From: Coleofasciculus chthonoplastes F2-STO-03
GTDB taxonomy: Bacteria; Cyanobacteriota; Cyanobacteriia; Cyanobacteriales; Coleofasciculaceae
DNA: 18,503 bases
Direction of reading: 5' to 3'
Assembly (NCBI GenBank): GCA_040222015.1
Contig: JAVJWO010000169.1
Span: 1 to 18,503, forward strand
Part shown: piece by piece, positions 1 through 17,328 of the stretch
How positions within the stretch are numbered: the first letter of the stretch is position 1
Layout: every line of letters begins with the position of its first letter
Translations under genes and position numbers: made by a program
Notes under the pieces: model-generated
The model's input: only the letters and a program-made list of their open reading frames with translations
What the model was told of the DNA's origin: nothing
The model's database searches: none

Positions 1-10
1 ATCCAATTAA

Positions 11-246
11 GTAAAGTTTGCCTCGACAATGTTAGACGGGCTTTTTAAGGATTCAGCACTACAGCTATAAACCTGTTCACTGATTGCTTAACTGAATCCG
101 ATAGAGCATGATGCTGGCGTTCACATCAAGGTGTCATGACCCGTCTAACGTAGACTGCGGTGAGTCTTGGTCTGCACGTTCCGACTATGTACAGATATGC
201 CTAGATCTGCATAGTTCTGTATAGGTTTTTCGGAACGGTTTGTACC
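11..246 (-). ncRNA. HEARO/omegaRNA-like scaffold of an IS200/IS605 (IscB/IsrB, RRXRR-type) element
   Basis: The minus strand reads GACCAAGACT..AGTCTACGTTAGACGGGTCATGACACC..GATG..GCCAGCATC..GCTCTATCG..CAGTTAAGCA..AGTGCTG..AAAAAGCCCGTCTAACATTGTCGAGGCAAACTTTAC, the ordered motif series typical upstream of cyanobacterial iscB/RRXRR genes. Visible stems: 31-40/140-149 (10 bp perfect), 49-56/92-99 (8 bp perfect), 109-113/124-128, 152-156/163-167, and a long 5' hairpin at 177-237. The 5' boundary is uncertain (237-246). Confidence 0.8.
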
Positions 247-257
247 AAAATGTTATC

Positions 258-275
258 GGTAAAACCCGCCCCTAC
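258..275 (-). repeat. Single arm of a GTAG-type REP palindrome (GTAGGGGCGGGTTTTACC)
   Basis: Its reverse complement is identical (18/18) to 17172-17189, the left arm of a complete hairpin. No partner arm is visible here. Confidence 0.8.
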
Positions 276-350
276 AACCCTGCGTCTCTATCCCTTACAG
301 TTATCACCATCTCCACCATCTCTCCCAGCTTCCCGACTCACTGACGCAGG

Positions 351-1214
351 CTAAGCAATTCGCTGGAGAAATTCTTTGGTTAACTCGGTAAACGCTTTAG
401 CACCCGTGGAAGCGGGTTCAGTGAGAACCACGGGTTGAAACTCATCAACGGCTTTAGCGATGGCGACATTGGTGGGGATTTCGGTGATAAAGACTTTATC
501 GTCACCAAAATCAGAACGGACTCGCTTCTTTACTTTTGCCGCCATCGTCGTTGCATGACCCAGGGAAGAAAAGACAATACCCAGTAAATTGAGTGTAGCG
601 CGATCGCTCTGCTTTAATCTTCTGATGCGACCTTCCAAAATCCCCATACCTACAACCGATAGGGGTTCAGGCTTGGCGGGAATCAGATAAAAGTCACTGG
701 CAATTATACCACTGCGCGTCAGCAAATTATCTCCTGGCGGAAAATCCAGCAGAATCCAGTCATAATTAGAGACAATCGGTTGAATAATCCGCTTCACTAA
801 CGCATCTTCCAGATGATTCCAGCCTTTTTCAAAGTCTTGCTGATTGCTATGGGCTTGTGTATAAATCTGGGTAGCTAATAAGAAATCGTTGTACAGTTCG
901 ATATTACCAGGGATCAAGTCCAATCCTTTGACCTGACAAATGTTGGGGACAATCACCTCGTTAACAAGCAGAGACGACAACGAATGGGATTGAAAGGCTT
1001 GATTAACTAATTGTTGTAGCGTGCGTTTTTGTTTGCGGCATTTCGTAAACTGTACCGGAGGGATTAGGCTGAGAGTCGCGTTAATCTGGGTATCGAGATC
1101 AACGATTAAAACTCGCATCCCATGTTCCTTAGCCAGACTTGTCCCCAAGTTGACGGTGAGTGTGGTTTTGCCCACACCCCCTTTCATATTGACGATTGAA
1201 ATAACGTTGCCCAT
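351..1214 (-). CDS. parA: ParA/Soj-family ATPase (no adjacent parB)
   Basis: Deviant Walker A NMKGGVGKTT, A' motif LIVDLDTQINAT, Walker B WILLDFPP, ASDFYLIP and C-terminal IPTNVAIAKA; 287 aa. Confidence 0.92.
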   Translation of the reverse strand: MGNVISIVNMKGGVGKTTLTVNLGTSLAKEHGMRVLIVDLDTQINATLSLIPPVQFTKCRKQKRTLQQLVNQAFQSHSLSSLLVNEVIVPNICQVKGLDLIPGNIELYNDFLLATQIYTQAHSNQQDFEKGWNHLEDALVKRIIQPIVSNYDWILLDFPPGDNLLTRSGIIASDFYLIPAKPEPLSVVGMGILEGRIRRLKQSDRATLNLLGIVFSSLGHATTMAAKVKKRVRSDFGDDKVFITEIPTNVAIAKAVDEFQPVVLTEPASTGAKAFTELTKEFLQRIA

Positions 1215-17171: not shown

Positions 17172-17230
17172 GTAGGGGCGGGTTTTACCATTATCGTTAC
17201 TTGTCACCCAGATGTCACTAAACCCGCCCC
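17172..17230. repeat. Complete GTAG-type REP hairpin
   Basis: GTAGGGGCGGGTTTTACC, a spacer of about 30 nt, then AAACCCGCCCC, located just after a stop codon. Confidence 0.85.
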
Positions 17231-17328
17231 CTCTGAATGACAGCGTAACGCCGATTTGCCGATTCGTTTGATTCTTGTGTTATAACAGAGCTGGTTAGAC
17301 TCCCTAGCGACAACTCACCCCGACAGTT

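Follow-up and report, generated by a model that had tools for sequence, protein, structure and literature searches.

The closest described relatives of the element analysed here are the ISC2 transposons and the IscB elements of the IS200/IS605 kind. In the survey by Kapitonov, Makarova and Koonin (2016; PMC4810608), ISC elements are described as inserting without target duplication, some of them 5′ of the target and some inside repeats. The parts of that survey devoted to ISC2 portray short, non-autonomous, IscB-only elements that insert beside a short motif (GT|GG, GT|GA or N|ATGA, with one CC|CG family tabulated) and usually start with GTCA. Their ends were defined from copies inside repeats and from empty orthologous sites, and cyanobacteria are among the hosts (PMC4810608). 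In the account of the ISGst IscB element by Meers et al. (bioRxiv 10.1101/2023.03.14.532601), a HEARO-like RNA is found upstream of iscB, with the canonical right end as its limit. The guide derives from the flank, and one transposon-adjacent motif (TAM), described there as AT-rich, is recognised by TnpA and the nuclease alike. Two further comparisons concern the repeat at this locus. ISPpu9 of Pseudomonas putida KT2440 is an insertion sequence that occupies repetitive extragenic palindromes (REPs); all seven of its copies are so placed in the study that describes it (PMC8450116). REP/RAYT systems, as characterised in PMC2817692, PMC3116915 and PMC3733652, are palindromic repeats that occur in many copies, are tagged with GTAG and are accompanied by one RAYT-like gene with copies around it; GTAG is given as the defining tag of such palindromes in PMC3733652.

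We analysed a window of 18,503 nucleotides from Coleofasciculus chthonoplastes F2-STO-03, which is the whole of contig C169, one of 219 in the assembly. Very probably, the window begins within a ~1.57-kb non-autonomous IS200/IS605 (ISC) IscB/omegaRNA element that landed by chance in the loop of one REP, and whose guide would consist of the ~16 adjoining loop bases. Most likely, the element is an ordinary member of the ISC2/IS605 group whose head domain is undescribed and whose target lies on the CCC side. It shares with ISC2 the short, non-autonomous, IscB-only build (RRXRR and HNH domains, as seen in the copies of relatives), the lack of target duplication and the short motif, and it is inserted 5′ of this motif in the IscB sense, like the N|ATGA class. 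Its ends were likewise defined from a copy inside a repeat and from empty orthologous sites. In contrast to the motifs of ISC2, the present element has N|CCC, in which two bases (CC) are ambiguous, and it starts with CCGTTCCG instead of GTCA; the IscB body of the window copy is unassembled. With the ISGst element it has in common an omegaRNA predicted to lie upstream of iscB and to be bounded by the canonical right end, a guide predicted to come from the flank, and non-autonomy. Under the donor-joint homing model of that study, the motif beside the opposite end would be used by TnpA and by the nuclease alike. Unlike the AT-rich TAMs of that system, the bordering motif and candidate TAM is here CCC/GGG, and the first domain of the omegaRNA differs from the HEARO consensus. 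REP-specific insertion sequences such as ISPpu9 have most or all of their copies in REPs, whereas only one of the 19 copies of the present subfamily, and two of the 35 HEARO matches of the genome, lie in or near one. To our knowledge, ISPpu9 is also not an IS200/IS605 element.

Ends and empty sites of the element

At positions 258–275 the window reads ggtaaaacccgcccctac on the plus strand, which is the exact reverse complement (18 of 18 bases) of 17172–17189 (gtaggggcgggttttacc). On the minus strand, GTAGGGGCGGGTTTTACC (275–258) is followed by GATAACATTTTGGTACAAA down to 239, and then by CCGTTCCGAAAAACC... from 238 down. The closing AAACCCGCCCC arm is absent from the minus strand of the window, where 23 loop bases (261–239) pass directly into the element head. 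An earlier note on this DNA had reported both the arm identity and the locally missing closing arm, and both were confirmed. With 1016 exact occurrences of the arm word GGGGCGGGTTT and 687 hairpins in the genome, the arm match is not due to chance. The coordinates of the features are given in Table 1.

Table 1. Features of the interrupted REP, the element head and related sequences (window positions, unless a contig is named)
Feature	Position	Strand	Sequence or basis
Element head	1..238	-	Start CCGTTCCG... (window 238) to contig edge; holds the entire omegaRNA scaffold
HEARO / IscB omegaRNA scaffold	11..178	-	Rfam RF02033; model positions 1–52 replaced by 4 bases in the alignment
Subfamily-specific omegaRNA 5′ hairpin domain, 61 bases	177..237	-	MFE fold of window 258–1
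Predicted 16-base guide	239..254	-	AACATTTTGGTACAAA (RNA sense), all in REP loop; placed as in the IscB elements of Meers et al.
REP loop, 5′ part, cut by the insertion	239..261	-	TACCGATAACATTTTGGTACAAA; aligns with intact subfamily members and with the orthologous REP of six congeners
Left REP arm with GTAG tag	262..275	-	GTAGGGGCGGGTTT
ParA/MinD-like ATPase gene	351..1214	-	ORF list; named from a Walker-A-like N-terminus, KGGVGKTT, read by eye
Intact REP, different loop subfamily of the same family	17172..17231	+	GTAGGGGCGGGTTT, 32-base loop, AAACCCGCCCCC; comparison copy of the earlier note
Truncated head fragments without nuclease gene	C63:36667-36824, C33:42274-42405, C72:20150-20226, C216:78306-78349, C124:8499-8549		

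The head of the element recurs on contig C16 (C16:1-241, 99.2% identity). Copies or fragments on five further contigs (C2, C98, C72, C216 and C124) begin with the same bases, CCGTTCCG, in unrelated flanks and after A or G, so that this start is common to seven copies or fragments of the genome, with a differing base before it. Twelve further copies, in genomes G003, G005, G008, G016, G023 and G065, have the same start; the base before the head varies here too, with A, G, C and T all found. A 1980-base contig from metagenome run X3 showed 0 differences from window 1–238 and diverged after 238. Because the first bases are shared and the flanks are unrelated, the element boundary lies at window 238/239, and 239–275 is flank. 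The end of the Rfam match, 178, falls short of this boundary. The last base of the ...ACAAAC quoted in the earlier note already belongs to the element; the flank ends ...GGTACAAA.

The loop subfamily of the window half-repeat has ~106 intact members (loose pattern) of the form GTAGGGGCGGGTTT-TACCGATAAC...ACAAACCGATAACTTGACT-AAACCCGCCC. Among 116 pattern matches in total there were ten orphan right halves of this subfamily, one of which lies on contig C148, with 141 bases between it and the contig end. Taken as reverse complement, C148 1–141 was 100% identical to C146 1–141. This 141-base tail codes for the C-terminus of an IscB-like protein (...HRKDGYSYAF; DYCTPIHRKDGYSYAF); past the stop come another 48 bases, the last of which are TTCTTTACCC. 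Past the tail, C148 reads ATAACTTGACTAAACCCGCCCTTCTGG, with a flank, ATAACTTGACTAAACCCGCCC, that supplies the missing loop part and arm, and C146 continues in unrelated DNA. One element is thus represented in the assembly by two heads (C169, C16) and two tails (C148, C146), and the second REP arm, which the earlier note had proposed to look for at the far end, stands on C148 directly beyond the last 141 element bases.

In six congeners (G001–G005 and G007), the orthologue of the ParA-like gene is followed by an intact REP, ...GGTACAAACCCATAACTTGACTAAACCCGCCC..., and then by the same sequence as on C148. These empty sites read ...GGTACAAA-CCC-ATAACTTGACTAAACCCGCCC; in G002, the compared stretch of the flanks agrees with the window and with C148 except towards its far end, where changes fall in the next repeat. 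The intact REP found at this site in related strains, together with the half-loop and arm on C148, bears out the earlier note's proposal that the element is inserted inside a REP hairpin. At the second site (C16/C146), six genomes read ...GACAGAAG-CCC-CCTGTCG, which joins the C16 flank to the C146 flank. This near-identical copy lies in non-repeat DNA, likewise just 5′ of CCC.

At both sites the element stands immediately 5′ (RNA sense) of CCC, and the join is exact, with zero target-site duplication (six genomes per locus). The cut position carries a two-base CC ambiguity at both. This was settled in favour of CCGTTCCG...TTCTTTA, because the CC is kept in all 19 heads whereas the preceding base is variable; a start at GTTCCG was rejected on the same grounds. 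CCC follows the tail in both copies of this genome and, as CCCC, directly after the ends of all three complete copies of relatives (G005, G003 and G016), and it appears as GGG before the tail on the plus strand of the X3 contig. The tails of the relatives differ in sequence from the own-genome tail and were located by reading the DNA past the ORF stop.

In RNA sense, the order is the REP arm and 23 loop bases (275–239), the head with the omegaRNA (238–1), the unassembled IscB body, the 141-base tail (C148), CCC, 11 loop bases and the closing arm. The interrupted loop has 37 bases, and the insertion is in its middle. The link from C169 through the element to C148 in this strain is predicted from synteny and the matching REP halves, not from a spanning read. 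Among the X1 contigs, one of 1340 bases runs 36 bases past the junction GGGT and one of 7341 bases begins at window 247. These contigs would fit an empty site in a strain that shares 99.5% identity with the window, but the letters beyond the junction are mixed, and the contigs were therefore not counted as evidence.

The ParA-like gene lies upstream of the omegaRNA in the same direction, with the REP ~75 bases past its stop codon, and its orthologues adjoin the empty site in congeners. A promoter and terminator scan found no site between this gene and the element. A ParA-like paralogue with 65% DNA identity (C148:13788-14338) follows just past the interrupted REP. The REP and the element are flanked by two tandem ParA-like genes, a layout that is kept in congeners.

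OmegaRNA, nuclease gene and predicted guide

HEARO was the only Rfam family found in the window (94.5 bits against a gathering score of 83, E 1.5e-18), and the same match was recovered in the whole-genome search. This genome holds 35 HEARO matches, 26 of them over the gathering score, with several head types (GTCAGGAACCCCAC, GTCAACAACCCAC and the window type), which is an unusually rich IscB/IsrB-type set for one genome.

The omegaRNA subfamily of the window carries one long 61-base hairpin in place of HEARO positions 1–52, in the window as in the 18 other heads. In a canonical copy of the same genome, these positions form an 8-bp stem around two small hairpins, from the first base of the element. 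In the MFE fold, the 5′ domain of the window copy consists of an 8-bp closing stem, CGUUCCGA/UCGGAACG (237–230 with 184–177), around a long imperfect hairpin. This head hairpin is strong and begins at the second base of the element, and the omegaRNA fold was more stable than that of shuffled sequences (z = -3.7). At the other end, a putative tail hairpin was read by eye, TGCATAGATATGCA in relatives and weaker in this genome. Going by the anatomy of the family, the DNA hairpin at 177–237 would be the subterminal hairpin to which TnpA binds at the canonical right end. Contigs from the RNA libraries of run X15 span window 3–238 and end at 238. This stop is a repeat boundary, where all copies diverge, so it says nothing about the RNA end, and the coverage is no proof of transcription.

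The size of the element was read from the 1980-base X3 contig, in which the tail (record 115–255) and the head (1446–1683) both occur with 0 differences, giving 1569 bases; the two matches were taken as one record by equal length and depth. This copy occupies a third, unrelated site. The copies in G005 and G003, with heads 88–94% identical, encode a 424-aa protein that starts with MSNY and has RRXRR (227 bits) and HNH domains. In contigs of X1 and X15, the loose ends that precede window position 3 carry ATG TCA AAT TAC (RNA sense), which matches the MSNY start of the relatives' IscB. The start codon lies ~17 bases beyond window position 1, where the contig ends. The IscB body of this copy is absent from the assembly, in which only C16 overlaps the first 15–40 window bases and the smallest contig has 1522 bases; it was probably lost as a collapsed repeat under the contig size limit.

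The copies on C63 and C33 were considered as gene-bearing and rejected, as both are truncated scaffolds followed by unrelated ORFs; that on C63 runs into a kinase-like ORF. The fragments on C72, C216 and C124 retain the first 43–76 bases only.

The predicted guide was placed directly 5′ of the scaffold, and its length was taken as 16 bases, as given for IscB guides in the literature. The 16-base guide had one perfect match in the genome, its own occupied site. Two sites, both of them REPs, differed from it by one mismatch, and 12 sites, including five REPs, by two. The seven near-matching REPs (up to two mismatches) continue with CTA, CCG, CCA or TCG, and none with CCC. At the homologous position of the 59 loops of this REP subfamily (strict pattern), CCC stands in two, CCG in 27 and CTG in 19. 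The earlier note's idea of a REP-derived guide held in part: the bases in guide position do come from a REP, but from its variable loop rather than from the conserved arm, which falls outside a 16–20-base guide. Its suggestion that such a guide would match a multicopy repeat is not supported, given that the sole perfect match is the element's own site and that no near-matching REP carries CCC. The predicted guide would direct IscB only to the emptied site of this element. CCC, which borders the tail, is a candidate target/TAM for IscB. As the element's own sequence past the guide is CCG, self-avoidance would depend on the third base of the motif or on later positions.

We propose that a Y1 transposase encoded elsewhere in the genome would act in trans and insert the element into single-stranded DNA, 3′ of GGG on the canonical top (plus) strand (...GTTATGGG^TTTGTACC...), with the omegaRNA end as the canonical right end. 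The omegaRNA would begin in the flank, with ~16 loop bases. Excision would restore the REP, which would then be the sole perfect guide target beside CCC; IscB would cut this restored REP, and repair from a sister copy would bring the element back, as in the standard homing model. The genome holds 17 Y1_Tnp matches, 16 of them over the cut-off; none of the 17 lies inside the element, and none is tied to these ends.

The REP family and its RAYT-like gene

With arms allowed up to one mismatch and loops of 25–45 bases, 687 hairpins were counted, which make up 0.51% of the genome; exact arms number 1199 on both strands. The loops are mostly 34–40 bases long and the stems 10–14 bp. In 639 of the 687 hairpins, GTAG precedes the left arm or CTAC follows the right one. 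A 183-aa RAYT-like ORF (C18:49589-50140) matched NF047646, NCBIfam's REP-associated tyrosine transposase model, with 76.6 bits (E 1.7e-21) and PF01797 with 34.1 bits; it is among the weaker Y1_Tnp matches of the genome. Three REP hairpins lie on each side of it, six copies in all. The same set of three, in direct order, is present on both sides of this gene (C18:49259-50438, locus L053).

The RAYT-like gene on C18 is likely the keeper of the 687-copy GTAG-tagged family. High copy number, the GTAG tag and one RAYT-like gene set between copies are features of described REP/RAYT systems, and they make the name REP reasonable despite the unusually long loops on short stems; the RAYT candidate itself scores just under the NCBIfam cut-off of 80. 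In line with the earlier note, the repeat family looks like a REP/RAYT system.

Other repeats also meet these palindromes. A different repeat ending CTTAAGTTGACAC occurs in 119 places, for example on C26 and on C173 (reverse strand, 123 bases from the contig end). In 14 of its 119 copies a REP arm comes no more than 60 bases later, and often only ~10 loop bases lie between; the repeat, which is unrelated, may enter REP loops more often than the IscB element does. A small palindromic insert, GTAGGGTGCGTTAGCG..CGTAACGCACCAT, interrupts several REPs (e.g., on C40, C43, C45 and C176, and the neighbouring REP in locus L033 of G001) and appears to be a very small mobile repeat lodged within REP hairpins.

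Probable chance landing weighed against other readings

The 19 heads of this omegaRNA subfamily come from seven genomes, seven of them from the present one. A REP arm within 100 bases upstream was found for one of the 19, the window copy itself. Among the 35 HEARO matches of the genome, two had a REP arm within 160 bases, namely the window copy and one that lies beside, not inside, an intact REP. The sister copy on C16/C146 is in unique DNA. A preference of the element for REP loops, as put forward in the earlier note, is therefore not borne out, and the flanks of the other scaffold copies were random, a result that the earlier note itself had named as refuting its idea. Cross-talk with RAYT, also raised there, is suggested by none of the present results. 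REP hairpins hold 1.7% of the CCC/GGG sites of the genome, and REP loops 0.25%. If insertions were uniform over CCC/GGG sites, the probability of one REP hit in 19 would be 28% for any REP part and 4.6% for loops only; reckoned by bases, it is 9%. The 4.6% is the only figure that leans to loop attraction, which it mildly favours, being post hoc for a case picked for this very feature. We discount it for that reason and because insertions survive better in neutral intergenic DNA. The landing in a REP loop was most likely a chance hit on a CCC target, this REP copy being struck because it happened to carry that triplet.

Chance landing of a mobile element was weighed against three other readings. 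The element might prefer REP loops as safe harbours, perhaps as single-stranded DNA, with a REP guide leading to homing among REPs or to interference with RAYT. In favour of this are the mid-loop position, the 4.6% under the uniform null, the presence of a RAYT-like gene, the two and five REPs that the guide matches with one and two mismatches, respectively, and the action of IS200/IS605 transposases on single-stranded DNA, as stated in PMC6006769. However, 18 of the 19 copies are without a nearby arm, the sister copy in unique DNA is 99% identical, all seven near-matching REPs lack CCC, and only two of the 59 subfamily loops have it at the homologous position. Moreover, the conserved arm lies outside the guide and the 4.6% is post hoc, and we regard such a preference as quite improbable. 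Very improbable in our judgement is a bolder form of it, in which long single-stranded REP loops would be favoured pads for Y1-transposed IscB elements, and a mismatch-tolerant guide would break sister REPs, so that the element spreads by repair-mediated copying, as RNA-guided homing among paralogous repeats.

An inert relic, in which omegaRNA and IscB are no longer made or working here and the REP-derived bases have no guide function, would accord with the unassembled IscB body at this site, the truncated head relatives in the same genome (C63 and C33 without gene; C72, C216 and C124 with 43–76 bases) and the lack of a promoter-like site between the upstream gene and the element. We nevertheless consider it unlikely. 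Two copies of the genome are 99–100% identical at both ends, an identical head and tail stand 1569 bases apart at a third site (the metagenome contig), and the element is missing from the closest congeners, which together point to recent movement. The scaffold also scores over the Rfam threshold with a stable fold (z = -3.7), and RNA-library contigs cover it, although these are no proof of transcription. Finally, the REP arm could belong to the element, as its own terminal hairpin or within a fused REP–IS composite that moves as a unit. The arm is only 23 bases from the scaffold, and the ends of IS200/IS605 elements, like REPs, are hairpins on which Y1 HUH enzymes act. This reading is refuted, to the point of having next to no probability, by the 18 other copies, none of which carries the arm, and by the orthologous site of six congeners, where arm and loop are intact without the element. 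We thus hold with high confidence to an IscB/omegaRNA element that landed in one REP loop, most likely by chance, and would take its guide from it.

As it stands, the finding matters little, being a well-documented insertion by an RNA-guided transposon of a kind already known. What it provides is the exact ends, the length (1569 bases) and two empty sites of an undescribed ISC2-like subfamily with a variant first domain in its omegaRNA, together with CCC as its candidate target/TAM. If true, a REP preference or the cleavage of sister REPs would tie RNA-guided nucleases to REP/RAYT dynamics, but the present counts speak against it. The element also explains the assembly break at this point. REP right arms in tandem arrays, with a period of ~24 or 33 bases (e.g., CCCTAAACCCGCCCCTACGATTGT), were observed, for example, at C41:48579-48720 and at contig ends of C180, C187 and C204; as such arrays often lie at contig ends, they also break the assembly.
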